A DNA stretch of 64,000 nucleotides from Cyanidioschyzon merolae (lineage: Eukaryota): NCBI GenBank assembly GCA_000091205.1, contig AP006496.2, one strand, 5' to 3'. The translations under genes and the position numbers were made by a program. The notes beneath the pieces were generated by a model that was given only the letters and a program-made list of their open reading frames with translations, was not told where the DNA came from and ran no database searches. Shown here piece after piece: positions 29,874 through 62,543 of the stretch (position 1 is its first letter; every line of letters begins with the position of its first letter).

Positions 29874-32574
29874 GCGGCATCGAGTGCGGGGTACTCAGCC
29901 GCTGCTGCTTGTACAGAAACGTATATGAATCGTAAGTATAATTGGCAACAGATATCGAGACAGGTGTGCAGCAGCGAAGCCAGCCGCGATACAGGTACTC
30001 CAAGCGCACGCCCTGCTCAGTTCTGAGGGCGACTCCGAGGCGAGGTTGTTTGCGCGATCGCGACGTTGACGACGCCCTAGGACGGCATCATCGCCAGCGG
30101 GGGGACGCTCACGCATCGCAGAGCACCCGACCAGAGGCCAGTGACACTTCCAGGTGCTTGACACCCGAAATGAGGACCCAGCTTATGCTTCGTTCCTCGC
30201 TGCACGGTGCAGGTTCTCTGGCACATGGGATGGTTCTCAGTTTCTACACCGACGTCTGCATATTGCTTCCGTTTGACGGTGCAGAACCGATGGATCAAAG
30301 CAGGATACCCCGATGAGGCTACTTGTACCAGCCGTTTGGACAGGCACTTTGGTTTCTTCATGGGCGTTTCGATGCTCTCGCGCTCACAGTACAGTGCACC
30401 CGAATGGAAAAGCGACCTGGTCCATCTTGCGCTCCTACGGTAGTAGCGTTGACTACCCGCGCTAGAGGGAATCGCCAGTGCGTGTGCTGCTGTAGACTTG
30501 TTACAGAGGCGCGACGACTTTGCGATGACTCTCATGGTGTCGGTTGGAGGAAATATTGTTCTTCCAGCGAGTCTATCAGGTACCAGTGCGAAGCATTTCG
30601 AGGAGTTGCCTCTGTCGTGGCACCGTGTGGGACGGAAATCGGAGCGCCCAACACAGCGCTTTCCGTGAAGGTGCCGCAGCCGCCTTTTCACCTACTTTAC
30701 GCTCCAATTTCCATCTCAGATGCCATGCCAGCAAGAGGCACGCATCAGCCATACCTGGGGGCTTCTATGCCGCATCGACGTAACGTGGACGCTTGGCCGA
30801 TGTTGCGGCTCTGGGCAGTTTCGCCGCAGCCTTGCCCGAGAGCACGCATTCGCAGCTCGCCGTTGGGTGCGTGCCAGGCAATCAGTGCCCTATGGCCTGT
30901 TGCTGGGGTGCTGTCCAACATGTCACTGCGAGCGTGTCTGTTGGCGTCGATGCCGCTGCGCGATGCACGCATCGTGCACGACACGCATTCGCCGACACGG
31001 ATGCATGAACAGTTTGCAATGGGTGCTATGTGTACTGTAGACCGTTTGCGCAAGCTGCTAGTCGCTGTGCCTAGTGCTCTTCACGGACGCTTAGAAACGC
31101 AGCGAATCATAGTTTTTCAAGAATAAAATTTATTCCACTCTCCCTATGGTGCACTGCAGGAGATCGACATCACGATGCAATGCATAGTATAGATCGTGGA
31201 CGAATTGCCCGTACGAGATATATTCTTAACTGAACAGTGCACGGTGGAATGGATTTCTCCTTCAGGTCAGTCATAGCACCTTGCTCCAACGGTTGAGGAA
31301 CACTGGAAGAACCAAGAATATGCGCTCCGCGCCAAAACCCGATATTCTCAAAGCGTGCTTGCGGTCAACGATAGAACAACATCCGTAGATAACCTTTTAC
31401 GGAAACCAAAAGCGATGATAATAGACACCATGGGTGTGTCTGATACTCTATATCTTATTCGTGTGGTCCTGAAAAAACAGGGATAAAATCGCAAAAACGT
31501 CCTAGTTCAAGCACGGCCATCTTCGACCGAAATCGCAACGCCAGCGTTTCTGGAACGTCGCAATCGGGATGAAGCATGGGGGCGTCGGGTTGTTTCCTTT
31601 TTCTTCGACGAGACTCTGCTCGGATAAAACCGTCGGAGCGTATATGGGTATGCGCGGAGAGGGAGCCCGTTGTATGTACGACCGAAAGTCGAATGCGAGG
31701 CCCAAGCAGCAACAGCATTCACTTTGTCGAATTATTGATGACTTTCACCGGACACCTGGCTACGTTCCTCCGCTGAACCACAAGACATTTCACCATTCCG
31801 ATTGCGTCCGAGTTTTTGCCGATTCTGGCGGTTAATGGAGCTCCTTTTCATTCCTCTGTACAGCCCGCGGTTGAAACCCATCGAAGCAGAGTTTTCTCTT
31901 GTGATACGCAATGATCGCTGCATTGGGCGAATCGCTGCAGCGTTCATCACACAGTGACGTACGGAGACACAATTCGTCTCCCATCCGCAAGTCCTACTTC
32001 CTCCAGGAACGTCCTCGCCTACCGGCACAATGGAGTGTATTCGATTTCGAAAATAAGTGGATGCGCTGGGGTGCACACATCAGAACGTCGAAATGGAGGC
32101 GAAAGTTCGAGGACTTCTTGAATTGATGAGTTCCACCACAGGTAACGGACACGTGGAGTGCGTGAACCGAGACTTGCACGCCACGAATTATATGAGGCGA
32201 TGTGTTGTGCTGATGACGAGACTTAAAGAGCTGACGCCATCCAGCTTTGTGGAGCAGCCTCTCAGGCAGGAATTGCGCCTGGATGAACTGAAGCCGATAG
32301 CAGGTGAGCGATCCAAAAAGGCTGGGTGGTGTCAGCACGAGGGTATCCATTTCATCCACATGACCGTAGAACATTTTGCGTTTGACTTACATACATAGGT
32401 TCTATTCTGGAGTGACAGAAAGAGCTTGTGGTTGGCGATAACTCTATCCCAGTTCGTGGCAGACGTTATCTTCGGGCACCCGTGCTTGGTACGCGTCTTG
32501 CGACGTTCTAGTTGATCTTGAAAGCGCTGCTTGCACTGAATGGAGTGCGCCCCTGCGGATGCAAACGTGTACCT

Positions 32575-43910: not shown

Positions 43911-44487
43911 TCTTCTCGCATGCAATAGATCGTGTTGCTAGATAGTTGCTCCTTATCAAAGAATGCGGGAAACGGATCCAAGTACTGAATAAAGTGTACT
44001 AGTCAAGGTGGACTTGCCAGTAACAGATCCTCTCTAACCCCAACGTGCTGACCTCTTTCTTCTCGCATGCAATAGATCGTGTTGCTAGATAGTTGCTCCT
44101 TATCAAAGAATGCTGGAAACGGATCCAAGTACTGAATAAAGTGTACTAGTCAAGGTGGACTTGCCAGTAACAGATCCTCTCTAACCCCAACGTGCTGACC
44201 TCTTTCTTCTCGCATGCAATAGATCGTGTTGCTAGATAGTTGCTCCTTATCAAAGAATGCTGGAAACGGATCCAAGTACTGAATAAAGTGTACTAGTCAA
44301 GGTGGACTTGCCAGTAACAGATCCTCTCTAACCCCAACGTGCTGACCTCTTTCTTCTCGCATGCAATAGATCGTGTTGCTAGATAGTTGCTCCTTATCAA
44401 AGAATGCTGGAAACGGATCCAAGTACTGAATAAAGTGTACTAGTCAAGGTGGACTTGCCAGTAACAGATCCTCTCTAACCCCAACGT
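43911..44487. repeat. 147-bp tandem repeat, about 3.9 copies (intergenic satellite-like array)
   Basis: The motif 'tcttctcgcatgcaatagatcgtgttgctagatagttgctccttatcaaagaatgc...' restarts at 43911, 44058, 44205 and 44352, a period of exactly 147. The copies are near-identical. The array lies between the giant ORF and the AVL9-like gene. Confidence 0.85.
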
Positions 44488-46731: not shown

Positions 46732-47563
46732 TAGCAATGACGACACTCATCGCGCGGGAGAGGCGGTGGAGGTGGCGCTCTATGAGCAGCACAGATATTT
46801 CTCGATGTATCATTGTAAACGCGGGACTTGTAGATTCGTGTCTTTGGCACCAACGGACACCTCTTCTGTACAGAGCGGTGCATGCTGGAATGCTTGTACC
46901 AGTTTATCCTTATTGTTTTCGTTTGTTTCTCGTGCAAGGAGTTCAATAAAAGGAATGTGTCTCGTGGACTGGACAGAGATCGCGGAAAGCTTTGATGTTG
47001 TGGTCGCTATTGGCTTGCGATAATGAGCGACCTGACTATCCCAGGGCTCGGTATTGTCGAGCGTTGGGCATGCGCGCTCTCAGGGCCGTATCGAGAAGCG
47101 CGGAATACCTGGCACACTTCATGCCGTGAGCACACGAGCGATCCAGTGGCACACGCGGACGATCTTTGGTAGGTGTACATGGTGCTGCACTGGGGTTGCA
47201 AAGCGTTTCTTCTGCATGAAGGCAAGAGGCGTGCATTCGCTAACTTGTTCAATGCGTTGGAAAATAAAAAATGACTCCCAATTCGCGTCATGTGGTGGTA
47301 GCCTCCAGCGATGGATGTGCGGTTGCGCGCAAGAGCTGCCTGGTCTCTGCTGCTTCGAGGAGCGCGTAGAACGAGTGCAGGAATCGATGCTGCAAGATTC
47401 ACGTCAACTCATTCAGGACGACGTACAGGCATCACGAGCTCTGGTCAAAATTGAAATACGTAGAGAAGAAGAGAGCGCAACAGAGACGGATGCATGAAAT
47501 GGTGTACGGTATGCTGAGCGTACGTCAGCATGGGTTCCAAGTGAATCCAACGGGCTTGCACAG

Positions 47564-47590
47564 GTGTGTGTGTGTGTATGTGTTTGTGTG
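47564..47590. repeat. (TG)n microsatellite
   Basis: gtgtgtgtgtgtgtatgtgtttgtgtg. Confidence 0.8.
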
Positions 47591-47953
47591 ATTCCATCAG
47601 CTACGAAGCACCCATGTACGTTCTATATGGGGAATCGCATGCCCCGACGAACACCGGAAATGTATTGTGCTTCGAGAGCGCCCGTCGGTTTTGTGTGGAG
47701 CGAACTGGCGAGTGAATCGTTTAGTACTCAGTTTGGGCCCTGCGCTGAAACGCTGCAGAGTTTCGATGCAAAGTATCAGTTGCCAGAATCGAGGCGTTGA
47801 AATCTCGCTTGGATCGAGGCACTCTTCTGGTGCGGTCAACAGCCAAGCAAGGCTGGGGCACCATACAGATACACCGGCAACGGAGTTCCTGGAATTTTCG
47901 TGAACAAAAATGGTGTCCCGTGATCCCATGCTCCAGAGTCCAGATCGTTGGGG

Positions 47954-48742
47954 TTAGGATACAGGCTCCACGCTGGCCATGATGCCCTCTGCTAGCAGAC
48001 GTCCACAGCAGCACTCGGCGAGCCGCTCACTCGGCATGAGCACCTCGGCTCGTCCGCACCGCTCCAGTATTCGAGCGGTCGCCACGGCCGTGCCAAAGCC
48101 CATTTGCGGGACATGGCTTACGAGAGCGCGCACAACGTGCTCCGTGGAGTGGCCCTGCTCGAGCGTCTGTGCTCGGAAGAGCACAACTCGATAGACCGGC
48201 GCGCGTATCGTCCAGTTTTCGGGGCCTGTGGTCGACGGCTGGGCGCTGCTGGCTCCAGCGGCGCTGGGCGCAGCGGCGACAGCAGCGTTCGCCGGAGCGC
48301 TGCGACTGGACTCTCCCTTAGTATCACGGAAGAAAGACGGCAAGCGTTGGACGCGTTCCAACTCGCGAGCAGAGGCGCGCGGAGCGCCTCGTCGTCGGGC
48401 AGCAAGCCACGCTGCCGTGGTCTCCAACAGCACCATCAGCTGCACGCGAACAACTGCAGGCGCAGGTCGAGCCGGTTGTGCGTTTCCGTGAGGACTCCCA
48501 TTGGGCGTTGCTGCGTGCTGCTCAGGAGGTTGCCCAAAACGACGCTCCTCATCAACACCGTCGTCACTGCTGCCGCTCGCCGCTGTACTAGCGTAACACG
48601 AACAGCGCCGACGCTTCGGAGCAACCACGCCCGCGGGCGCTCCGCTGACGCTCCAACGGTGCCCAGGTTGTAGGCGTTGCAAGGTACACACGACGAAAAC
48701 CATACCGGTGTTTACGCCAGAGTCGAGCGTCACGATGTGCAA
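47954..48742 (-). CDS. organellar ribosomal protein bL12 (L7/L12)-like; alternative assignment ClpS-like adaptor (same alpha/beta fold)
   Basis: 262 aa. The N-terminus is basic and A/S-rich (targeting-peptide-like). An Ala-rich hinge 'APANAAVAAAPSAAGASSA' is followed by 'VYRVVLF...VVRALVSHVPQMGFGTAVATARILERCGRAEVLMPSERLAECCCGRLLAEGIMASVEP', which aligns with the L12 C-terminal domain 'FDVILK...[21 protein letters not shown]...AEALKKALEEAGAEVEVK'. ClpS 'YKVILVNDDYTPMEFV...' is a weaker alternative. The real start may be internal (e.g. M at about 48436). Confidence 0.4.
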   Translation of the reverse strand: MHIVTLDSGVNTGMVFVVCTLQRLQPGHRWSVSGAPAGVVAPKRRRCSCYASTAASGSSDDGVDEERRFGQPPEQHAATPNGSPHGNAQPARPAPAVVRVQLMVLLETTAAWLAARRRGAPRASARELERVQRLPSFFRDTKGESSRSAPANAAVAAAPSAAGASSAQPSTTGPENWTIRAPVYRVVLFRAQTLEQGHSTEHVVRALVSHVPQMGFGTAVATARILERCGRAEVLMPSERLAECCCGRLLAEGIMASVEPVS

Positions 48743-48789
48743 CTTTCAGCAACACTTATGCGCAGTAGATAGTACGTACGGGCGCCGCA

Positions 48790-51700
48790 GCCAAACGCCT
48801 TTCGAAAGTCGAACGACGTCGGGCGTGTACAGTAGCGGCGACCGGCGGCCTAGACGTAACGCTTCCAGCTGGTGTGCAGACGCCTCCCAGCGTTTCTCGG
48901 CGGGCCACGTACTATTTCTTCTAATTTCGTCTCATATACTTCTACTTTTCGAGATTGTCCAACAAAATTCCCTCTTGTCTACTCTGGAGGTCTGTTCTCC
49001 AGCACTGCCCATCTCCGGATATTGATAGCGGCGTTAAAGTCACGATTCACAAAATCCATACGTCTCCTGCAATCTCTGGTTGTACTTTCTGATGCAAGTA
49101 GTCCACGAACTTTCGCTCTCCTTTCAATTTGCTCTTCCGTCAGCGGTTCGTGCTTTGCTATTTCCGAACGGCTCGTTGGCACTTTTCCATCTCCACTGTC
49201 TGAAGTGTACAACCCATTTCATGGTGTGTATAGGACGTTCGGAACTCATGTACAGGTATCGTGAAGAAACGCCTTGCGCACTCTTTGTATGTTCTTGCCG
49301 TTGGAACTGGCGCAGTCCCTTTTTTCGACGCCGAGCACCCTGCTCTGTACGCTACTACGAGCCTCTGACTTTCATCCTCCTTCAGGGCGCTCAACTGATT
49401 GAAAAAATTCGCGAACGCCCGCTGCTTCCCACAATACAAGTTCATTCACAAACGAGCCCACCGGGGCTTGGTATACTCCTCCCACAGCGCCTCCCAATGA
49501 GCAGCGCGAACTTTCATGAATTTCCGAAAAGCTTCAAAGTCCGCTCCTCGGCTAGTCACCTCGCTCAAAGCTTCCATGTGATCCTTCACTCCTGAATTCC
49601 ATTTCTCGATTTTCTTCCTTGCATTCATTATACCGGATTCTCGATAGTATCTTGGTCTCGAGAACCTCAAAAGACGCATGTCTCTCTAACGAAAGTTACC
49701 ACCAGTACTATCTTCCGCACGCTTCGGTGCTGCGATGGTGATGATATTCGTATTCCCGGGGTCCGCGCCAACGACAAAGTCGTTATCTTGTACTTTCTGT
49801 GCCGCAGGATCCGCCTTCTTGTTTTCTTCATGCTTCGTCGCGCCAACGACAAAGTCGTTATCTTCCACTTTCTGGGTCGCAGGATCCTCCTCTTTCTTTT
49901 CTTCATGCTCCGCCGCGTCAACGACAATGTGGTTATCCTCCACCTCCTGCGTCGCAGGATCCTCCTCTTTCTTTTCTTCATGCTCCGCCGCGTCAACGAC
50001 AAAGTCGTTATCCTCCGTCTCCTGCGTAGCAGGGTGCGCCTCCTTCTCATCTTCATGCCTCGCCGCATCAACGACATGGTCGTTATCTTCCACCTCCTGC
50101 ATGAGAGGATCCTCCTCTTTGTTTTCTTCATCCTTCGTCATGGGCGCAGTCGAGGGCGGAATTGGACGATCTTTCTTCAACCGCCGATAGTGTATACACA
50201 TGGCTACTCCATCGGTTTCGATCAACCCAGTAAATACCTTTTGTTTGGTCTCTTTGAGACGTTTGAAATTGAAGATATTCTTCCAGTACGTCTCCCGGTT
50301 ATCACCGGAGAACTCCTTGTTGCTAACATTGAACTCCGGACAGATCTCCTTCATGATGCCATGAAGGATCCTGGAGTCGATACTCACAAAATGTGACTTG
50401 ATGTTGCACAACGGAACCACGTTGAACCGCTTACCCATTAGGAAAGCCTTCTGTCTCTCCCACTCTTCATTTTTCCTCACTCAGCTTCATCTCCGCCTTG
50501 CGTTCGAGTTCTCGATTCAGGAATACGAAATAGAGCAGGATGAGTTGATAGCATCTTTTTTCATCTTTTTTGAACTCTGATATTTTTTCTGTTGGATTCG
50601 CCAGCCCCATGACTGCACGGTGCTCTTGTATAACCGCACGGATTACAGAAGCCTCATTCGTGCTCTCGTTTGGCGCCTTCTTGTCGACAAATTCGACCTC
50701 ATCTTCATACTTTCGATCGTTCGTGATGCCATTGATAATCGCCCATATTCCTTTGCGAGACAGGCCCGGGTAGAGTGGAAACACGGTGCGTATTATGAAA
50801 CGTTCGAGGTTCATTGTCAAATGGTTCTTCAGGTTCGTGATGTGCTTCATCGCCCCGTAGCCGTAAATACCCCGGTCACCCTTGTATCGAGTACCGTTGA
50901 AGCTGTAAAAGGGATGTTTTTCGTGGGGGCCATGCACTAGCACATTTTCCCTCCGCGTTTTCTCTCCACCAAGCATCAGGTGTCGAATAAAGGTGATGTC
51001 GAAAAACTCGTCTGGAATCTCGACCGTTTCGATGTGCGTCACGTCTTTGTACATCTCCCTCGCCAAATGCATCAGCCCTGACGACGCCTTGACAATACTC
51101 TTGGAGTACGAGTCGACGCGTTTTTCGATAGCGTCTCGCAACTTTTCCCTGTACGGATCCTTGATATGGCCAAGAAGAAAGGCTCTCATCACCTTCTCGT
51201 CGTACAGTCGTCTTTCTTGCCGCCTTCGACGTAGGACCTCTCCCCTTCGGTTCTTTTTCTTCTCCTTTTCTTCTGGGCTCGGCACTGTTTTTCGTTTTTT
51301 CTGGCAGCCAGCGATACTGGGCCTCCAGGATCGTCGACTTGCTTTTTCATAGCTTTCCTTTTTCAGTTTTTTTAAATGAACCCGCTGTGAATGCTTCGGT
51401 TATATACTGCGAAAAAACACTTGGCCAGACTTGTTTGAGGGTTGAAACACCAATGAACTGAAAACTATATTTTTGTTCGACTCCGACGCAAATACAACTT
51501 TTACAGCTGAACAACACGCTCCTGGTCAGCATCGCGGTTCCTTTCAACGGCGGCATGTGCATCGCGTCAGTTGACTGCCTGATCTCCGAGATGCGTTCAT
51601 TAAGCGCAATGCGTCCATCGCACGAGACGCCACTCCAGTCGATGAAGGACACGTGTCCGACACCCCGCATTGGCACATGCGTGTTCGCATCGCATTGCAG

Positions 51701-51790
51701 CCAAACTAAAGTATCGTAGATAGGAAACTCACGTAGAACGATCTCTTGCTATAGACGCTGTCGCTGGTGCCGAAGCTACTGCCCATCGCA
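48790..51790 (-). mobile_element. Fanzor/TnpB-like (OMEGA-family) nuclease element, copy 1; AT-richer than surroundings; frame-disrupted
   Basis: The encoded protein pieces carry a basic NLS-like N-terminus (EKEKKKNRRGEVLRRRRQERR), the RuvC-I motif '[15 protein letters not shown]', the mid motif 'VHEFRTSYTHHE' and the RuvC-III motif 'FVNRDFNAAINIRR'. Non-coding homology to copy 2 extends about 500 bp 5' of the ATG and about 190 bp 3' of the stop. Local GC is clearly lower than the flanks. Confidence 0.65.
48979..51350 (-). pseudogene. Fanzor/TnpB-like RuvC nuclease coding region, copy 1 (split into 5 ORF pieces by frameshifts)
   Basis: The ORF pieces are 50467-51285, 49686-50480, 49446-49679, 49158-49445 and 48979-49212, all on the minus strand, and concatenate into one Fanzor-like protein. 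The breaks after KLSEEK and after EKCQRAVRK are absent in copy 2. The breaks at GNFR/MRLL and near the N-terminal MKKQ ORF are shared with copy 2. Confidence 0.6.
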
Positions 51791-52563
51791 GTACCGCCTG
51801 GACATACATGGAAATGTTGGGACCTAACGCGATACCTCGTGATGCTTCTATCAAAAGCGTAGCGTTCTCTGCGGCTTACCGTTGTGTGGATGACGTATGC
51901 ATCACTCTTCTCACTAGGAATTTCGTTAGTTTTATTCATCGTAACCAAACTAGGTACGGTGGGATTCCTGAACACGGACATACGTTTAATGCCGATGCTT
52001 GTCACGCATGCTACACTGACGCTGGAATGAGGAACTGACCTGAATTGTGCTTCTATCCTGCGTCATAGGCTGGTACTGATGACCGTTCAAGTCATTTCCA
52101 TGCTGCTGTCGTTGTCTAACTTATGGTGCCTGCTTCGTCCTCCGGATCCGGTGATCTTGGCAGAGGCATAGCACACTCGACCGGCCCCCTGCTATCGGTT
52201 TCAGCTTCTCCTTGTTCACCTCTGGCCTGGGAGGTTCCCCCAGAAAGTTGGACCGCGTCAGCTCCGCCGGTCGCGCGTTCATCACCATTCATCATCTGAT
52301 ATTGATGGCGTTTTGTCTGAAACGCTCGTGATAGAGCTGAGGTCAAGAAGCGATCAATCTTGACCGACGCTATCAAACGAGCGGTACCAGAAGCTGAGGG
52401 CTGCAGCCGGCACCAGGTGCTCTGATGCCTACATGCTGGCCGTGAATAGTGCGTGACGAAGTCGCACAGCATGCCACGGTTTCCTAGTACGTAAACCAAG
52501 CACGTATTCGAAACGTTCGGGTTCAGTGTGATGACGAGTCGCCGCTACGGCATTCTGGGAAAA

Positions 52564-53079
52564 TCATCCGAGTGCGCTATGGTTGTTCGAACATCGAGCA
52601 TCATCACGTGTATGGGTGCGTTTCACTGCACGAGTTGCAACGATCATCGAATCCACCATCATCCAAAAGTGACGAAAATTTACAAGCGTACCGGGCTCGC
52701 ACCTCCAGGTCAGGACGTGCCCACCAGCACGCAAACAAATTTCGTGCCCTGCTGTGCTTTCACCAAAAACGAAAGGAAACATGCGTTTCCTCGACCAGGG
52801 ATAGAGGGTTCCGAATTCCTTCAGATACTGCCGATGTTTCGTCCGAACCCAGACCAGCATCTGCAGTGTGCCCACGAGCATACACAGGATGCCTGCGATT
52901 GTTCGCATCATCGAGATCAATCCTACCCACGCCAGTACCTCAAATATGCAGTTCGGATACGACACGAACTCGAAAAGCAAGCCGAATGGGATCCGCCACC
53001 AGCAGCGGCCGCGAAACCCGATTGCAAACCGCTCCCGCAAGCCATTTGGGCAAACGAGTGGTGCAGCGCGCATATTCAT
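52564..53079 (-). CDS. 3-oxo-5-alpha-steroid 4-dehydrogenase (SRD5A/polyprenol reductase) C-terminal-domain protein
   Basis: 171 aa. 'RIPFGLLFEFVSYPNCIFEVLAWVGLI...RTKHRQYLKEFGTLYPWSRKRMFPFVF*' matches the SRD5A C-terminal signature 'GG.feyvS.PNY.gE..eW.G.......H..Y...F..YP..RkalIPfif'. It is shorter than full-length family members; the N-terminal TM helices were not found. Confidence 0.45.
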   Translation of the reverse strand: MNMRAAPLVCPNGLRERFAIGFRGRCWWRIPFGLLFEFVSYPNCIFEVLAWVGLISMMRTIAGILCMLVGTLQMLVWVRTKHRQYLKEFGTLYPWSRKRMFPFVFGESTAGHEICLRAGGHVLTWRCEPGTLVNFRHFWMMVDSMIVATRAVKRTHTRDDARCSNNHSALG

Positions 53080-53664
53080 ATAATGCAGCAGCAGTAGCAG
53101 CAGCAGAGTGCATCTAGGGGTGTGCGTGGATGGTGAGCATGCGTTGCGCAGCTACGATGTGCTTTCGTTGAATGCGGCAGATAGCTGCATGGATCGTTGC
53201 GTGCGGTGCGCTGCTGTGATGCGCTTTACGGGCGGCGTTCGGGAAACCTGCTTTTGCCTCACGGGAGCGCGCGTCAGTGTCGAGTAGCCCGTCGGCAGGG
53301 CCGGACAGCATCTCTTGCAAACGAGTCCGCTGGCAGCGAATCGAGCAGGCGATACGACGTTGCGCTCGTCATCGGATATCGGCACTGCAAGGCACACGGA
53401 TACCTGTAGAGCTCGTAGTTGATCGGTCTGCAACACGGTTCGGCATGCGCCTCGCCAGGGAACTGCAGAGCAAGTGTGTGCGTGCACAAACGATGCGCGC
53501 TCTGGGCTGGAAAACGACGCTGCGTCGCAGCTTGTGTCCGCAAAATATACGTACTCCTCTGGTTCGGTATCGGAAACCGCAGTAGCTACTCGCGCAGGTG
53601 CTGCTGACACAGGTATCGATTGCGCGGCGCCTGAGCGCAATATCCAACCGCCGCGACTCTGCGC

Positions 53665-54240
53665 TCACATGTGCGCTTCGATGCCACGGAGGATTTCTTC
53701 GGCCTTGGCGCCGTTAATCGTGAGCACGCGGTCACCATTCTTGTAGAAATGAAAGCTCGGTACGCTGCGAATACCAGCGGCCTTCATCATCATAGATGTT
53801 TCCTTGGACTTATCCCCCACCACTTTTAAGAACACCACGTCGGTGTACTCCTCACTCCATGATTCCATCTTCGGTTCCATGAGTTTGCACGGCCCGCACC
53901 AGGTGGTCCCGTAATCGACAACAATGAGCTTGTTCCCCGCTTCCGACAGGATGCGTTCCATTTCCTCTTGTGAATCAACTTCCCGAACCGCCATCCTAGG
54001 CCGAAGCGAACCCAGAGGCCTGCGGCGGCTGTAGCTGTAGCTGCAGCGGTGGTGGTGGTGGTGGTGGTGTCCAGACCCAACGCCCTGCTGCACCGTTCCG
54101 AGGGCGTGTCGGCGCCATAGCGGCGCTTTACTGCCACTAGCAAGCAAGGCCCGTGTACACACCGCGCCACTACCGAGGTCAGCGCGTTTCCCGACCGATC
54201 CCGCAACAGGTACTGATACAAAGCAACTGATTCCTACCAT
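53665..54240 (-). CDS. TRX: thioredoxin (WCGPC active site); core domain from ATG at 53994, upstream in-frame 82-aa extension with (His)7 may be a presequence
   Basis: 'LIVVDYGTTWCGPCKLMEPKMESWSEEYTDVVFLKV...GIRSVPSFHFYKNGDRVLTINGA' is a canonical thioredoxin. The longer ORF adds an R/S-rich N-terminus containing HHHHHHH encoded by (GTG)n. Confidence 0.8.
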   Translation of the reverse strand: MVGISCFVSVPVAGSVGKRADLGSGAVCTRALLASGSKAPLWRRHALGTVQQGVGSGHHHHHHHRCSYSYSRRRPLGSLRPRMAVREVDSQEEMERILSEAGNKLIVVDYGTTWCGPCKLMEPKMESWSEEYTDVVFLKVVGDKSKETSMMMKAAGIRSVPSFHFYKNGDRVLTINGAKAEEILRGIEAHM

Positions 54241-54425
54241 TTCCGTCTCTCAGGGTCCTGCTTGTGTGGAGTACACGTTGCCCAGCAAAGCACCAGCGTA
54301 GAGCAGTCGCCACAACGATCTCCGCGCCTGTGCGCTGCGGCTGGCGCACTGCCGCATCTCATCGAGGCGAGATCGCGGCGCCTGGAAGTGGACATCAGCG
54401 GCGGCAGCGGCGGCAGCGGCAGCAG

Positions 54426-54626
54426 GTGTCACGAGCACGGGGTGCGGACATATACCAACGAACATACGGTGTGTCGATGGGTGCTGCTTTGGGTGTCACG
54501 CGCACGGGGTTCCGAAGTATATCAGTGAACATACGATGTGTCGATGGGCGCTGCTTTGGGTGTCACGCGCACGGGGTGCGGACGTATATCAGTGAACATA
54601 CGGTGTGTCGATGGGCGCTGCATTGG
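54426..54626. repeat. 67-bp tandem repeat x3 upstream of the thioredoxin gene
   Basis: The unit 'gtgtcacgcgcacggggtgcggac.tata.cagtgaacatacggtgtgtcgatgggcgctgctttgg' is repeated three times contiguously, about 190-430 bp 5' of the thioredoxin ORF. Confidence 0.8.
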
Positions 54627-56406
54627 ATGAGCGTCGATTGCGATCGTTTGCCAGATGAAGCATTTCTAGAAGCGGATGTACACCTCCTAACGCATGATAT
54701 TTCCTGTATGGATGCGTCCGTTGCTTGACAAGGCCAGGGTGATCTCGACTTCGGATCGGATGCTGTTGATGATACGCCAATGATCGAGAGATCATTCGGG
54801 TATCGAAAGCATGATCGGTCTCGTGTACCAGATAGATTGCAATCGCGAATACTGGAACCGAGGAGCACCCCAGTACGCGAGCGCTCGCAACACGTGTCCC
54901 CACTGAGCGAGCGCCTCACTGGGCGACATCGGCCTCGTGGTGAAGCGTCGCAGCGTGCCCCTATTCATAAGCAACGACGATGCTGCAGTCCTGGCGCTGC
55001 GATTGTGCCGTTTGTGGTCTGCTAGTATTATTTTGACACGGTTCGACACCTGATACCGAGGGCTCGCGCTGCCGCGGGATGCCCAGCTCCGGTTTTCGAT
55101 CCCCGCCTTCGAGCGCTGCCTTTCGGATTCAACGACCGGCTCAGCAGCGAGACTAGTGACGAATCGTCTGAAAGCGCTGCTAGGACGCTGCGCACTGCCT
55201 CTGTGTACACGCGTAGGCGGTGGGTATCTGGATGCGACGCGCTCGGCTTTGCTCAGCGGAGCGCTTTTGTGCAACCATTGCGCATGTTGCTGCTCGGTTG
55301 CGACTTGGTCTGGATGGCAGTCTATTCGAGTCTGAAAGTCACGCATTAGGTCATGAGGGTCATTTTCACTTTAGTGACATGCAAAACGGAAAGCAGGTAC
55401 TCAATGTTCCAATGGGGTTTGCTTGCGTGCATCCATAGACGGCCCGCATCAAGCTTCCGCTCGATGCTGTTTCTGGCGCTGAGCATCGCGGGCACGCGGC
55501 ACTCGGCACTGTGAGGTGAGCAGCGACCTGCGCGAGCGCAACACATTACGGCCGCAGGAAGAGGTGTCGATCAAAGGGGTCGAACGGATTCCACTGCCCA
55601 TGGGTCACTCGGTGAAGCCGTTCGCATGTACCCGTTCCCAGTCATCATCAGCGTGTTGGGTATCGATCAGCGTTTGCGTTTCGCGCTTGAAGCAACTGCC
55701 TCTCTTCATATACCACGGATGCATCCGTATGCTCGGCTTGTATGGACCACGAACTGGATCCCATGTCAAGCAGGCAAACGGACGCGCTCTTTCGTGACCA
55801 ATACACAGCATCTGCTGAGCGTCGCTCGATCGCTTTCTTCCTTCCAGTCCGCGAATGCTCCGATGCGTGCTCGTTCGACGCGAAGTCGCACCAGAGAAAC
55901 TGCATCGAACAGAGTCCGTCATGCATCGTCGCAGGAAACACAGCATTATCATAAACACGCACGCTGCCTCGGGTCTTTTGAGCCTTGCGCACATCAAAAG
56001 TCAACAGGCCCGCTGCCGGGTGCATCGCGACGATCGTCAGCGATCAGTGCGTACCGTCCGAGATCGTGATTCCCTAACCAGCATGAGCGCGTCGTTCCTT
56101 GTACATCATCCACACTATAGTGCTGCGTCATCCACGCTCAGTGCTCACACGACGCGCCCAGCTCTAACAGATGCGCCGCCTGACTATTGCGCAGACAACC
56201 GGAGGCACACATCCGCGAAACCAGACATCGCCGGTATTTCCCCAGGCAAGTCATTTGCTGAACGCGCGGTCATTCAAGGGAGCCTATCGGGAAATGCCTA
56301 GAAATGACGAGCCCCTATGGCAGGTGCATGAGCCTTCACTGCCACCGTTCTATGCCTTCTGTCCTGAGACGCGCCGGCGCTGTCGCGGCCGTCGGTAAGC
56401 CAGCGC

Positions 56407-57075
56407 TCAAGCACCAGCGCTGTAACAATGCTGGCTGGGATCCGAGCCCAAGATGACGTAGGTGTAAATTTCGTCGTTCAGCATTTGTGCGGTATACGAT
56501 GCGATAAACTTGTACCGACCAGAGGTCAGCGCTGAACGGAATACCCGTTCCATCTCTGGAACCACCAGCATTGCAGCTTCAAAGGCCTCCCGTCCAAAGA
56601 GGCCCTCGCCGCCGTATGCATACGGACTCGACCAGTTGAAATAGTGCGCTGGCAACTTTGTGGCATGCGCAGCGCCCATATAGTCGGTGCTGGTCCAGCC
56701 GCCCACGGCGAGCGCTGACTCGACAGCTGCCCGTCCGAGCGCACTGCAGTTGCCAGCGGCCACGTCTGCTATCGGACACTCCACCATGTTATCCACGACG
56801 TTCGCAGCACCAATGATCAGTCCCTTGTTCAGACACAGGTCATGATCAAGGTCTGCAAGCGCATTCATGATGGTAAAGTCGTATTGCGACACGTTCAGGG
56901 CCATAGCGTCGGTCTCGTTGATGTAGATGCCACCGAGCGCCCTGCTCGGCACCCGCAGGATACTCTCTTCGAGCGTCTCGAGGTTCAGCGGCGTAACCAC
57001 TGTCGCAGCACAACGAGACAAACATCCCGCAAGCCCCCACAGGCTAAGAAAAGCGAAAAGAAGCCACGCTCGCAT
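56407..57075 (-). CDS. secreted protein, paralog A of a small family (signal peptide, N-glycosylation sites, conserved C-terminal LGxDPSQHCY)
   Basis: 222 aa from the ATG at 57075, which starts 'MRAWLLFAFLSLWGLAGC' (a signal-peptide-like hydrophobic N-terminus). It shares 'LN.SQ..FT..NAL..L...LCLN', 'CSAL', 'GWTST', 'YFNWS' and 'LGSDPSQHCY' with the ORF at 62544-63191. The ORF-track extension to 57528 is probably non-coding. Confidence 0.5.
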   Translation of the reverse strand: MRAWLLFAFLSLWGLAGCLSRCAATVVTPLNLETLEESILRVPSRALGGIYINETDAMALNVSQYDFTIMNALADLDHDLCLNKGLIIGAANVVDNMVECPIADVAAGNCSALGRAAVESALAVGGWTSTDYMGAAHATKLPAHYFNWSSPYAYGGEGLFGREAFEAAMLVVPEMERVFRSALTSGRYKFIASYTAQMLNDEIYTYVILGSDPSQHCYSAGA

Positions 57076-57439
57076 ATTAATCAGAACAGAGCCACGTTCC
57101 AGGAAAAACAGCAATGTCTCTATCGTGGGTGGTGCTGCATTGGGGATCAAGGCGCACCGCGTGTGCGTGCGTCTGTGCGCGGAGCGCCCTGCGGCGAACA
57201 GGCCCCGGTGCAGGCCCTGCGAGACGCCGCGGTGGCACCACCGGCGCACGCCTCGGGAGCCGGCACACTCGATCCGTGGCGATCGAACAGGCCCAGCGGC
57301 AGCGCCAAAATGGGCGTTCGGGACGTCGGCGGCGCCACCAGCATCAGCGATCGGCGCCAGATTAGGAAGCGATGCGTGCCGGCGCGCGCTGTTTCCGACG
57401 TTCCAGGCGTCGACGCGTCGATGTCGGTGGTGGTGGCTG

Positions 57440-60250
57440 CGGGCGCCTGCATCTCCACTTAGGTGAGGGCGGTACTGAGATGGGCAGGAGCGTCGGCACC
57501 AGCGACATAGCATAGAGCAGGAGTGCATTCTACGTGAATTTCCAATCTAGGACACCTGATTTCAGCTGCAGTGCGATGCGAACACGCATGTGCCAATGCG
57601 GCTTCGGACACGTGTGCTTCATCGATCGGAGCAGCGTCTCGTGCAGTGCACGCATCGCGCTCGGTGAGCGCACCCCGGAGATCAGGCAGTCCATTGACGC
57701 GACGCGTATGTCGCCAATGAGGGGAAACGTGATCTTGATCAGTAACGTGTAGCCGCAATGTAAAATTGTAATTTCATTGAGTTCGTATCCAGGTATAGTT
57801 TTTATTTCAATTGTGCTTCACCCTTAAAACAAGCGTAGTCAAGTGTTTTCTCGCGGTATATAACAGAAGCGTTCAAAGAACGTTCTTTTTCAAAAAAAAA
57901 TCTAAAAAAAGGAAAGTTATGAAAAAGCAAGTCGACGATCCTGGAGGCCCAGTGTCGCTGGCTGCCAGAAAAAACGAAAAACAGTGCCGTGCCCAGAAGA
58001 AAAGGAGAAGAAAAAGAACCGAAGGGGAGAGGTCCTACGTCGAAGGCGGCAAGAAAGACGACTGTACGACGAGAAGGTGATGAGAGCCTTTCTTCTTGGC
58101 CATATCAGGGATCCGTACAGGGAAAAGTTGCGAGACGCTATCGAAAAACGCGTCGACTCGTACCCCAAGAGTATTGTCAAGGCGTCGTCAGGGCTCATGC
58201 ATTTGGCGAGGGAGATGTATCGCGACGTGACGCACATCGAAACGGTCGAGCTTCCGGACGAGTTTTTCGACATCACCTTTATTCGACACCTGATGCTTGG
58301 CACAGGGGAAGCGCGGAGGGAAAATGTGCTAGTGCATGGCCCCCACGAAAAACATCCCTTTTACAGCTTCCAGGGTAATCGATACAGCGATGACGGAAAT
58401 ATTTACACATGCGGGGTAATGAAGTACATCACGAACCCGAAGAACCATTTTACAGTGAACCTCGAACGTTTCATGATACGCGCCGTGTTTCCACTCTACC
58501 CGGGCCTGTCTCGCAAAGAAATACGGGCGATTATCAATGGCATCACGAAGGATCGTAAGCATAAAGATGAGGTCGAATTCGTCGACAAGAAGCCGTCACG
58601 CAGGAGCACGAATGAGGATTCTGTAATCCGTGCGGTTGTACAAGAGCACCGTGCGGTACTGGGGCTGGCGAGTCCAACGGAAAAGATATCAGATTTAAAA
58701 AAAGATAAGGAAAGATACTATCGCCTCGTCCCGCGATATTTTGTGTTTCTGGACCGAGAGCTCGAACGCAAGGCAGAGGTGAAGCTGAATGGGAAAAATG
58801 ACGAGTGGGAGAGACGGAGGGCTTTCCTAATGGGAAGCGCTTCAACCTCGTTCCAATGTGCAACATCAAGTCACATTTTGTGAGTATCGACTCCAGGATC
58901 CTTCATGGCATCATCAGGGAGATCTGTCCGGAGTTCGATATAAGGGAGACAGAGTTCACCGGTGAAAACCGGGAGACATACTGGAAGAATATCTTCAATT
59001 TCAAACGTCTCAAAGTGACCAAACAAAAGGTATTTACTGGGTTGATCGAAACCGATGGAGTAGCCATGTGTATACACTATCAGCGTTTGAAGAAAGATCG
59101 TCCTGGTCCGCCCTCGGCGAACCACGAAGATGAGACGGAGGCGGTTCCTGCCACGTAGAAAGTGCAGGAAAACGACTTTGTCGTTGGTGCGGCGAAGCAT
59201 AAAGATGAGGAGGAGGAGGATCCTGCGACGCATGAGGTGGAGGATAACGACTTTGTGGTAGGCGTGAACCCCGGGAACACGAATATCATAACCATCGCTG
59301 TATCCAAGCGTGCAGAAGATGGTACTGACGGCAACTTGCGTCAGAAGACATGCGACTTTTGAGGTGCTCGAGAGCAAAATGCTATCGAGAATCCGGTATC
59401 ATGAATGCAAGGAAGAAAATTGAGACATGGAATGCAGTAATGAAGGATCACCCGGAAGCTTTGAGCGAGGTGACGAGCCGCGGCGGGGACTTTAACGCTT
59501 TTCTGAAAATCATGAAACTTCGCGTTGCTCGTTGGGATGCGCTGTGGGAGGAGTATACAAAGCCTCGGTGGGCTCGTCAACGTATGAAACTATACTGTGG
59601 TAAGCGGCGCGCGTTCGCGAATTTTTTCAATCAGTTGAGCGCCCTCAAAGAGGATGAAAGTCAGAGGCTCGTAGTAGCATACGGAGCAGGGCGCTGGAAG
59701 ATCCAAAAAAGGACTACGCCAGCTCCATCGACAAGAACGTATAAGGAGTGTGCACGGCGTTTTGCTACAATACCTGTTGATGAGTTCCGAACATCGTATA
59801 CACACCATGAACGGTGATGTACGCTCCAGAGAGTCGAGATGAAAAAGCGCCAGAGGAGCCCTGAGGATATAAAAAAGTACGGAGCGCAAACGGAAGAGCA
59901 AATGGAAAGGAAAGCGAAAGTTCGTGGACTGATCGCATTGGCGAGTACAATCAATGGCAAGAAACGTATCGAATTCGTGAACCGAGACTTTAACGCCGCC
60001 ATCAATAGAAGGAGATGTGCGGCGATGGAGACGAGACCTGCGGAGTTGACAAGAGAGAATTTTATGGGGCAACCTCTCAAGGTGGAATTATACGATACGA
60101 AGCTGAAGTCAGTAGTAGGTGGCCGGTCGAGAAAGACGGGGAGGCGTCTGCATTTCAGTTGGAGACGTCTCGTCTAGGACGAGTTCGCCGCCACTGCTGT
60201 ACACCGCTGGCGGCAGCGTTGTTCTTTTGGAAAGCGTTTGTTGTTCGTGG
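57440..60250 (+). mobile_element. Fanzor/TnpB-like (OMEGA-family) nuclease element, copy 2, inverted relative to copy 1
   Basis: It has the same architecture and flanking non-coding homology as copy 1 at about 80-90% nucleotide identity. The RuvC-I motif reads '[15 protein letters not shown]' (Asp to Asn). The RuvC-III motif 'FVNRDFNAAINRRR' is present. There is an in-frame TGA at 59816-59818. Confidence 0.65.
57919..60180 (+). pseudogene. Fanzor/TnpB-like RuvC nuclease coding region, copy 2 (frameshifts plus in-frame stop)
   Basis: The ORF pieces are 57984-58883, 58805-59158, 59162-59362, 59350-59817 and 59839-60177. There is a 1-bp deletion in 'ggaaag' after AFLMG relative to copy 1, and a TGA within '...THHER*CTLQRVEM...' where copy 1 reads HHEMGCTLQTVEM. 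Confidence 0.6.
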
Positions 60251-62543
60251 TGCTCTTGCCGTTTGTCTCATGCGCGTTTGAAGGTGCGAATTTAGCAAGT
60301 CGAGTTGGGCTCGTCACGGGTGTGTGTGCACCGCAGGCGCGGGCAACGTGGTACACGACGCTCGTACCTCCACGGATGCTTCCAAGTGAACCACTGGTGC
60401 CGGACTGGTGTTCCTCTCAGAGATAGTGGTTTAACCGTTTCCGTTTCCCCGCGGTTGCTGAGCGCAGAAGGGACAGCTTTGCTGTACGAATGGACGAATA
60501 TCGCTTCGAGGTGCACTGTCCAGCATACCGGGCATAGAGGCTGATAGATCGGGCGCTTTGGTATCGGTGCGTTGCGAAACCGCGCAAGGTTCAAGAAGCA
60601 TGCAGTCCGCTTTACTTTCTGGATTTTTGGCACCAGTGCCCATATACGGTTGCTCGAACCGAATACAGTGCTTTCGCTAGGCGCTAGCGGCAACGGAGCT
60701 CAATGATCATGCGCTGCTCCAGTGTCAGAGAGAAATGGAGCTGGTGTGCTGATTCGGGTGTATTCGCTGAAGTTTTGATTTCTTTCCCTTGTGATGCGCA
60801 CCAGCTTTTGCGGACATCTTCCGCGCCCGCTTCCTTTTCGTATCTCGCATATCGGCCTCGGAATACGCCGGTGCCGTGTCTCGCCTCAGCTGCGGTGTCA
60901 GCAGCGGAAGGATGTTGATGACAGCGTTGGAGCCCGCGTTTCGTTGTTTCCCACTGCTGTTGGAGCATTTTACGCAGAGGCGCAAGTTCCTATCTACGAT
61001 TCGCTTTCCTTTTTCTGCTTCATTGTATGGAGCGTCGGTGTGCTCTTCACAGCCGTCATACGTGACTGTGGTGAGGTGTTTTCGTATATCCATCACTAGA
61101 CCCTTTCTCCTCCTCCTCCAAGGTTTTTTTGCGATGTGGCGCATGAACGCTTGCATCAGCGCTCGGTACGTGTCCTCGACTGGTACAGATGGCTCTTTTC
61201 GATGTTTTCATCAGGCGCCGCGCCCGGTGCTGTGCCCAGTGATCACGGCTCGCGTCAGACGATTCCCTCGGCGAGTACTCTGTCCACCGCACATGCAAGC
61301 GAAGGCTGTTCCACTCGATACGGGATTAGCGGCACCCGATATCGTCCGTAATCAAACAAGTGCGGGAAGGGTAATCCAGTTTAGAGAAAAGTTGAGAACA
61401 TTCGATCCGTCTCCGTTCCCTTCGCGCACAGCAATGACGCACTCTCTAAAGGGAGCGGTCGCTTCGATGACGCAAGTCGCACTCTGAATCCAAGACGATT
61501 TTCCATGCGAACACACGGGACGAGAGCCCGCTGGAGCAGTTCCCGCAAAATGTTTCGTACAGGTGTGAGATTTCTTTTCGTAGACGACCGCTAAAAGAGG
61601 CGGATTTGTGTTTTTCGAACGGAATCGATAAATTGACATGACAAGTTCAGTGGTCTTTTGGCAAGAGTTTTTGATCAAGAGGTCATGGTGCGACGTCGAG
61701 GATGCTTCTGCGTCATTCCAGCGGGGCGAGTTGCCGCGCGCACGAGTTTCCATGCAGGATATTGATCGAAAACTTGAAGAATACATGGTTTGAGCGTGGG
61801 GCACGTAGGGATCGGAAAAGGACGGAGGAACACAGGTATGCATTGGATAACGATATCGGTTATTTCACGAACCCTCGCTCGAGGGCGTCGCAAATCATCG
61901 CGATTCAACGGACGTCACGAATTCCAGCTCTGTACTGTATCGAAAGAGCCTCCCAAAGTAAATATGGCCGAGAATCACTGACCTACATATCCATCCGTAC
62001 GCCCGTATTGTTGCGCTTAGAATACCGCGGTTGTAGACCCAAGAACGCGTTCGGAATAGAGTCGGAAAGCAGGAGCAGAGTGAGCAGTTCAGTGCTCCAG
62101 TTGAGAGCCTGGCACGCGTATGAGCTCGACGCGCGCATCCATCGCCTGCCGCCGTGCACGGCAATTTGCCAGCGGCGGAAATCATCGCGCCATCGACAGG
62201 AGCCACTGTGCGCGCTGAACGACGTCGCCTTGCTGTGGGCGCGCCTCGACCCGAACGCGTCGGTGTTTGCTTCACAAAATCGCGTGCAGCAAAGGCATCG
62301 AAAGACGGGGATTCGGAGCGGCTCATGAGCGCGCGCACCATGGAATGCGTGACACGTGTCCCACAGCGGCGCGGTGACGTGCACGTGCCGAATTTGGCAG
62401 CGCTGTGTGTTGTATTGGGATGTGGATGCGGTGCGAAACGCTCGGTGTGTATCGACACGAACGCATTTGCATGTTTTTTTGCGACTGTAGCAGATACTTC
62501 AAGGCTAACCTGTGTCTTCGACTACAAGTCGTTTATTATTCCG

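Follow-up and report, generated by a model that had tools for sequence, protein, structure and literature searches.

Chromosome 14 of the red alga Cyanidioschyzon merolae 10D carries, within the stretch of 64,000 nucleotides analyzed here (contig AP006496.2; hereafter the window), two inverted copies of a repeat of ~3 kb that are 80-85% identical to each other and contain the broken open reading frame (ORF) of a Fanzor nuclease. The similarity between these copies continues for about 190 bp beyond the stop codon that ends the reading frame of copy 1, and the question raised by this locus is whether that tail is, as originally predicted, a conserved non-coding segment containing the scaffold of an omega-RNA, the guide RNA of TnpB and Fanzor systems. 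Our analysis partly confirms this proposal: the similarity is real and its outer boundary was placed correctly, but the label "non-coding" is wrong for two-thirds of the region. Approximately 129 of the ~190 bp encode the C-terminus of the nuclease and are lost to the proposed scaffold, while the ~65 nt that follow the stop codon shared by the family (65 nt in copy 1 and 78 nt in copy 2) are retained as a candidate and probably represent the omega-RNA scaffold of a known Fanzor1 family, CMe-1A.

Identity, coding tail and right end of the two copies

The two copies in the window, which the original prediction had recognized as Fanzor elements, belong to Fanzor1. Their broken frames hold the split RuvC motifs of TnpB and Fanzor proteins, including FVNRDFNAAINIRR, and the motifs GADPGN, EFRTS and NRDFNAAINI are present; the corresponding residues D (xDPG), E (DEFRTS) and D (RDxNAAxNI) are invariant in alignment A4 (D398, E569 and D636). 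A profile built from seven family members matched the Guillardia Fanzor1 protein GtFz1 (9cer) with E=5e-4, and such a profile was needed, since single-sequence phmmer searches of PDB gave no match for the Fanzor proteins; a local Pfam search gave no match for them either, the only label being the precomputed tag DUF8286 (PF26935). When an AlphaFold (AF2) model of the intact member P0043 (predicted local distance difference score, pLDDT, 63; C-terminus of low confidence) was compared with PDB using Foldseek, the top seven matches were all Fanzor1 proteins (SpuFz1, GtFz1 and PpFz1; E values of 3e-14 to 3e-11, TM scores of 0.42-0.60), the best being SpuFz1 (E=2.8e-14). The CxxC pairs of a C4 zinc finger (TNB) were not visible in A4 between E569 and R635, where the model is of low confidence.

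Neither copy retains an intact ORF, both being interrupted by frameshifts and in-frame stops. In copy 1 these are a frameshift near 50470-50480, an in-frame TGA at 49446-49448 and the premature TAG listed in Table 1. Because the frameshifts and in-frame stops differ between the copies, each is a pseudogene, and the broken ORFs together with degraded hairpins at the right ends indicate that both are decayed relics of Fanzor1 members that are unlikely to act today.

The homology beyond the stop codon of copy 1 extends to position 48788, with 141 of 206 columns identical in a global alignment of 48788-48978 (reverse complement) to 60052-60252 (z=12.8 versus shuffles), and the shared strings quoted in support of it are present. 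The homologous part of copy 2 had been given as the last 100 amino acids of its ORF and some sequence beyond; it is in fact the last 43 codons (60046-60174) plus 75 nt. Using tblastn, we found that the C-terminal ORF of copy 2 aligns in frame across the copy-1 TAG, which is TTG in copy 2, down to position 48853. The translated tails match at 25 of 42 residues, and both end at a TAG codon (48850-48852 and 60175-60177). In addition, a third and more diverged fragment at 32075-32338 aligns to the C-terminal ORF of copy 2 with 44% amino acid identity and reaches the same C-terminus, while intact homologues with 28-41% identity end in RPxxLxRxxFxGQxL...VG..R, a stretch that is kept as protein even in the distant members P0043 and P0045. 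The in-frame alignment, the diverged fragment and the distant homologues together establish that 48853-48978 is a Fanzor C-terminus stranded by a nonsense mutation, and that the similarity of the two copies over this interval is common descent of coding sequence. Non-coding status thus fails for 48853-48978, which continues the Fanzor reading frame and can be aligned to copy 2 codon by codon, and holds for the post-stop stretch only. A change of TTG to TAG at 48979-48981 cut the last 42 codons of the CMe-1A nuclease gene off from translation. For annotation, this removes a false "non-coding conserved element," as coding sequence of a pseudogene makes up most of what had been flagged.

To locate the outer edge of the repeat we drew on a scan of metagenomes of the Joint Genome Institute (JGI), which gave >400 related stretches; among 80 loci retrieved from these, the flanking sequences distinguished 42 separate insertion sites. 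Across these 42 independent insertions, column conservation is ~0.8-0.95 through the end of the ORF and ~0.7-0.9 after the stop and falls to ~0.3 at 48788-48793, so that similarity stops at 48788 in copy 1 and 60252 in copy 2. Where the orthologous locus is covered by short metagenome contigs, these break off at 48791 and 48820, at or close to the edge of the repeat, as assemblies do at repeat boundaries. The collapse of conservation and the contig breaks identify the outer boundary, which had been predicted to within 2-3 nt, as a true element end. The part of the element that is non-coding therefore comprises only the 65-78 nt counted from the shared stop, at 48788-48852 and 60175-60252.

This short segment has a simple layout in the family consensus. 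It consists of a first stem-loop (SL1; UAGGGCGGG-UUU-CUCGCC-A-CUA), a linker of 5 nt (CUGUA), and a second stem-loop (SL2) of 17-19 bp (CAC-variable-GNCGUCGUUCGA / CUU / UCGAACGGCGNU-variable-GUG) whose last base lies at the boundary. Between the 3' end of the ORF and the right end of the element, the family thus has a non-coding segment whose structure is conserved, with variable sequence beyond it, as expected from the position of an omega-RNA. SL1 is damaged in both window copies (Table 1). The interval 48788-48852 and its counterpart in copy 2 form the right end of the element, beginning at the family's true stop, and the last base of SL2 is the last base of the mobile unit.

Table 1. Positions of the element copies, their right-end features and the adjoining host gene.
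Feature	Position	Strand	Remarks
Copy 1, CMe-1A Fanzor1 element, pseudogene	48788..52176	-	5' limit from homology to L016, L054 and L062; 3' limit from family boundary
Copy 2, CMe-1A element, pseudogene	57450..60252	+	5'-truncated relative to copy 1; several frameshifts
Premature TAG (stop of copy 1)	48979..48981	-	TTG (Leu) in copy 2; Leu conserved in distant homologues
42 codons of Fanzor C-terminal coding sequence, now untranslated (TRGNFVGQSRKVEVYETKLEEIVRGPPRNAGRRLHTSWKRYV)	48853..48978	-	In-frame tblastn, translations
TAG stop shared by most family copies	48850..48852	-	Family copies
SL1 remnant, copy 1	48833..48852	-	2-nt deletion and substitutions relative to family form; covariance model, folding
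Terminal hairpin SL2, copy 1 (CACGCCCGACGUCGUUCGA-CUU-UCGAAAGGCGUUUGGCUG)	48788..48827	-	3' base is the element end; model match of 48.4 bits
Flank outside element, putative guide position if an RNA is made	48768..48787	-	In 5' region of CMN276C; boundary position and known Fanzor1 omega-RNAs (PMC10432273)
Copy-2 equivalent of copy-1 tail (Leu codon, 42 codons, shared TAG)	60046..60177	+	Translation, alignment
Copy-2 stop and post-stop region	60175..60252	+	SL1 remnant 60175-60196; linker 60197-60201; SL2 60202-60252 with 8 G.U pairs; 34.2 bits
CMN276C, ClpS-core-domain protein, host gene downstream of element	47954..48703	-	Exact match to BAM81355.1
Beta-type 5' starts	about -905 to -925 nt from ATG		L063, L064, L025, L060, L021, L001, L002

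The codon at which copy 1 is interrupted is itself unusual. Its second base is the most variable of the 903 aligned columns (column 811 of alignment c900; T15, A14, G7, C6), with a variability of 1.89 bits compared with a mean of 0.46. A stop codon occupies this site in 12 of the 42 independent copies, the codons found there being TTG, CTG, TAG, TCG, TGG, CGG, AAG, CAG, ATG and AGG, while distant homologues conserve Leu. Next in variability is a column 14 nt upstream, which falls in the loop of a perfect CTGGAG/CTCCAG hairpin. The TAG-bearing copies do not resolve as one clade, the tree being star-like and TAG scattered across it. One could imagine that active master copies carried TAG here, giving a truncated or read-through isoform of the protein or marking a processing site of an omega-RNA precursor, although we give this idea very little weight; if it were true, the 129-nt coding tail would have had a role at the RNA level in a prolific subfamily.

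Folding and covariation of the post-stop segment

Several lines of evidence indicate that the post-stop segment of the family is maintained as a structure on the sense strand. The consensus 68 nt fold with -38.3 kcal/mol, compared with -19.7 +/- 2.9 kcal/mol for shuffled sequences (z=-6.5). Over the 42 copies the mean folding energy is -18.1 kcal/mol for the sense strand versus -12.5 kcal/mol for the antisense strand (Wilcoxon p=1.5e-6), each hairpin containing ~3 G.U pairs. Strand-biased mutation was rejected as the source of the G.U excess because the family shows no strand asymmetry in its substitutions (C>T 5.6%, G>A 5.5%), and mutation bias thus does not explain the difference in folding between the strands. 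In an alignment-free arm-swap test, which took in only copies with a recognizable hairpin, the two arms of the same copy paired with -21.1 kcal/mol and arms taken from different copies with -16.5 kcal/mol (z=-6.8; 0 of 10000 permutations).

A covariance model gave a concordant picture. Built from four copies and searched against 268 kb, it yielded 37 matches, of which 36 lie at Fanzor 3' ends, one per element, and the remaining one is the end of a tandem upstream copy; the matches in the window are 48788-48852 (48.4 bits) and 60175-60252 (34.2 bits). In the resulting alignment, 84.5% of cells are paired and 20 of 28 pairs show changes on both sides, with 47 cells changed on both sides compared with 17 +/- 3 in shuffles and 7-16 in slid controls. 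RNAalifold applied to the whole 275-nt alignment of 40 copies recovered only the 4-bp core of SL1 and a weak helix of four pairs, because MAFFT had misaligned the variable arms, a problem that the covariance model and the arm-swap test solve. The structure and covariation called for by the original proposal are found in the post-stop stretch of the family and not in the coding tail.

A number of observations weigh against assigning the post-stop segment to an omega-RNA. Taken singly, copies 1 and 2 fold no better than dinucleotide shuffles (z of -0.49 and -0.32), so the support for structure comes from the family and not from the window, and most of the sampled copies are pseudogenes. The alignment used to count pairs was fitted to the model and is hence biased towards structure, and the loci were selected for the presence of the C-terminus, so that the completeness of their 3' ends partly reflects selection. 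A scan of 47500-61500 with Rfam 15 gave no match; two sub-threshold hits resembling small nucleolar RNAs, elsewhere in the window, were attributed to chance. A search for target site duplications (TSDs) in 12 copies with both ends found none, the longest shared word averaging 5.25 when the two ends came from one copy and 5.13 when they were mismatched. The 5' ends fall into subfamilies with unclear limits; with respect to a target-adjacent motif (TAM), TGAT occurs at 4 of 7 beta-type 5' junctions. Finally, a hairpin on the sense strand at the end of a transposon could equally act as single-stranded DNA.

This last point leads to an unlikely but substantial alternative, in which the terminal hairpin is a DNA-level signal for transposition, a single-stranded hairpin recognized by an HUH or rolling-circle transposase supplied in trans, as in IS200/IS605 or Helitron/Helitron2-like elements. 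Such a role would suit an element that lacks terminal inverted repeats (TIRs) (PMC3627910) and detectable TSDs, whose 3' end is constant and 5' limits variable, and whose hairpin lies at the extreme end and forms on one strand only; one subfamily also has a second hairpin with apparent compensatory changes near its 5' end. The 3' hairpin of Helitron2 is likewise at the extreme 3' position and kept by compensatory mutations, and such elements often carry Fanzor1 (Bao and Jurka 2013). However, the CMe-1A end reads ...GGTG instead of CTRR, and a gene for a RepHel or Y1 transposase is absent in or beside all sampled copies. No convincing asymmetric terminal inverted repeat (ATIR) of the Helitron2 type was found (TACAGGTTAGGC agrees with the expected TACAGTAGTGGC at 8 of 12 positions). 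The paper in which Bao and Jurka defined Helitron2 leaves CMe-1A without a class and does not place it among the Helitrons (PMC3627910). Moreover, SL1 and the linker are conserved as well, which fits the layout of a Fanzor1 omega-RNA. Since RNA and DNA roles coexist in IS605, a DNA signal would not exclude an omega-RNA scaffold in the same segment.

The other readings differ in how much of the tail they credit with function. Were the hairpins an ordinary 3'-untranslated-region (3'-UTR) element of the Fanzor mRNA, acting in termination, 3'-end formation or stability without any guide function, their sense-strand polarity and their start at the stop codon would be natural, and stable 3' hairpins can protect transcripts. 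This reading appears improbable and fits the data poorly: the structure stops at the element boundary in 36 elements, which would leave random flanking sequence to supply any poly(A) signal; neither a T-run nor a motif resembling poly(A) is conserved; and the layout is that of known Fanzor1 omega-RNAs. That the whole ~190 bp is a scaffold overlapping the end of the ORF, as in bacterial TnpB, is very unlikely, even though the omega-RNAs of ISDra2 TnpB and GtFz1 do overlap the ORF end, GGAGGCGTCTGCAC in the last 14 codons is unusually conserved (0.93), and TAG-bearing copies seem to have gone on spreading. The 129-nt coding tail shows no excess of RNA structure (z=-0.3 for the consensus, 0.29 and -1.56 for the window copies), RNAalifold recovers almost nothing there, neither RNAalifold nor the SL0 test shows covariation inside the 3' coding region, and the stretch is conserved as protein in distant homologues. 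The only hairpin candidate, in the last 12 codons (GGCGUCU/AGACGUU), was rejected because one arm is conserved while the other varies without compensation. At the other extreme, the similarity could reflect recent common ancestry of two repeat copies whose tail has no function; both are pseudogenes diverging nearly neutrally, 17 of 42 tail codons change the amino acid, and the family tree is star-like. This too fits poorly, and we find it hardly credible: neutral decay with strand-symmetric mutation would not be expected to produce complementarity specific to each copy, compensatory changes, indels that compensate each other between subfamilies, or pairing on one strand only.

We therefore favor the omega-RNA scaffold. 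In active members the ~65-nt segment would most likely have been transcribed from the sense strand and bound by the Fanzor protein, and the scaffold RNA would have extended 15-20 nt into the flank as a guide, as in SpuFz1 and PpFz1.

The CMe-1A family and its surroundings

Five host ORFs of the window and, separately, the ClpS-core gene are identical to proteins of C. merolae 10D from the CMN locus-tag series, on a chromosome of 852,727 bp. The repeat in the window is the known Fanzor1 family CMe-1A, which we matched through its published description (organism, size, identity, ORF, and TIR and TSD status). CMe-1A is the one Fanzor1 family that Bao and Jurka described in the C. merolae genome (2013, Mob DNA 4:12; PMC3627910), with ~150 genome copies of ~3 kb that are ~80% identical to the consensus and were left unclassified; it has no TIRs, its TSDs were not determinable, and its 5' 635 bp correspond to another element, TE-N2_CMe (PMC3627910). 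The window copies agree with this account in organism, in their ~3 kb length with a single Fanzor1 ORF, in being ~80% identical, and in having neither TIRs nor TSDs that could be found, and the copy number is consistent with the >400 stretches in related metagenomes. The paper predates the discovery of omega-RNAs and describes neither a right-end structure nor an RNA (PMC3627910). In the literature that we searched, we found no earlier description of the SL1/SL2 end, of the exact 3' boundary or of the recurrent premature stop.

Copy 1 ends 85 bp upstream of the annotated ATG of CMN276C (48703), on the same strand, and 46 bp from the start of the mechanically called ORF (48742), in agreement with the earlier placement of the edge near the start of the ClpS gene. 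In related strains, this insertion is present at all orthologous ClpS loci, with 97-99.5% identity, and no empty site was found among them, indicating that the insertion is older than the divergence of these strains.

The left end is more heterogeneous. The beta subfamily has its own 5' region of ~900 nt, which opens with a T-rich tract, with TGAT in front of it in 4 of 7 cases, and continues with the hairpin ATGACAA-AACG-TTTACAT, and in L064 this hairpin shows apparently compensatory changes (ATGAAGA/TCTTCAT). In the distant relative L084 (P0045, 40% identity), the Fanzor gene is immediately preceded, on the same strand, by a fragment of a DDE_3 (Tc1/mariner-type) transposase (L084:852-1265); a tblastx comparison of the ~900-nt 5' region with this DDE_3 ORF gave no match. 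A sequence resembling the right end, GGTGGTGGTG, just upstream of the 5' limit of copy 2 was dismissed as chance, its alignment score being equal to the shuffle mean.

Some elements lie in tandem. Directly upstream of the 5' end of copy 1, a truncated Fanzor C-terminal fragment (52177-52360, minus strand) runs from RuvC-III to "GGRS." The independent locus L016 has the same upstream fragment (L016:1-184, 87% identity), and in L054 a complete and well-preserved right end with SL1 and SL2 (L054:9-86) is found ~20 nt before the 5' end of the next element. The arrangements in copy 1, L016 and L054 show that the alpha subfamily repeatedly forms head-to-tail pairs; in three alpha-type copies, 14-20 nt separate the right end of one element from the 5' end of the next one downstream. 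A resident guide would direct cleavage at this distance, and the spacing hints at RNA-guided insertion beside existing copies.

Within the Fanzor ORF, just before RuvC-I, a 75-nt tandem repeat encodes an acidic unit of 25 amino acids, with five units in copy 1 (49763-50137), two in copy 2 (59115-59262) and varying numbers in other members. In many loci the Fanzor coding sequence also contains GTGTACACTATCGGCG, ~1.0-1.4 kb upstream of the shared stop (for example L071:2588, a minus-strand match), and 13 of its 16 positions are complementary to the tail linker CGCCACTACTGTACAC, probably because of the palindrome GTGTACAC.

Two more diverged Fanzor fragments are present in the window, both on the plus strand: a C-terminus at 32075-32338, compared above with the C-terminal ORF of copy 2, and a middle part of RuvC at 47283-47480, which has 36% amino acid identity to the mid-ORF piece of copy 1. 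Both are probably relics of an older family, and the right-end covariance model found no match at either position. Between copy 1 and the gene for thioredoxin f lies an ORF (52564-53079, minus strand) whose match to the steroid 5-alpha-reductase domain is confined to the C-terminal half (positions 73-150 of 150 in the Pfam profile); it may be a host gene that has been truncated. Unrelated to the Fanzor element are perfect 147-nt tandem repeats at 44000-44487 (three overlapping copies of 194 nt) and a 67-nt tandem repeat at 54425-54629 (three copies, 86-89% identical).

Relation to known Fanzor and TnpB systems

The thermo-acidophilic C. merolae serves as a model alga; its genome is tiny and almost free of introns, and its homologous recombination is efficient. 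With its two co-varying hairpins, the compact right end of ~65 nt offers a concrete omega-RNA candidate for a red-algal Fanzor1, and a protein reconstructed from the family consensus might yield a heat- and acid-adapted nuclease. CMe-1A was described in 2013, ten years ahead of the proof that Fanzors are RNA-guided, and the present result leaves knowledge of the Fanzor mechanism unchanged.

For comparison we used the Fanzor1 systems SpuFz1 and PpFz1 (Saito 2023, PMC10432273; Xu 2024, PMC11423790; PDB 8GKH and 9CEU-9CF1), in which the omega-RNA lies just past the stop codon and consists of SL1, one SL2 and the guide (PMC10432273, PMC11423790). The predicted RNA of CMe-1A resembles these in its scaffold of ~65-75 nt and in its succession of SL1, a single SL2 and a putative guide in the flank; its SL1 of about 7 bp compares with the seven base pairs of SL1 in solved Fanzor1 complexes (PMC11423790), and the fold of the CMe-1A protein is closest to SpuFz1. 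Nevertheless, the CMe-1A right end has no RNA sequence similarity to these systems, and its SL2 of 17-19 bp is much longer than that of PpFz1, where 4 bp are resolved. SpuFz1 elements also differ in having 30-nt inverted repeats and a CA/TA-type target, whereas CMe-1A lacks TIRs. In the distant relatives L083 and L084 the downstream regions are long (>190 nt) and the layout is not obviously the same.

ISDra2 TnpB, of the IS200/IS605 group, shares with CMe-1A the RuvC superfamily, the absence of TIRs and TSDs, a terminal hairpin, and a right-end RNA whose guide lies outside the element, which for CMe-1A is predicted. The omega-RNAs of ISDra2 TnpB and GtFz1 overlap the end of the ORF (PMC10432273), the bacterial RNA by >100 nt, whereas the coding tail of CMe-1A has no detectable structure. 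Unlike the bacterial element, CMe-1A has no TnpA (Y1) partner, and its host is a eukaryote.

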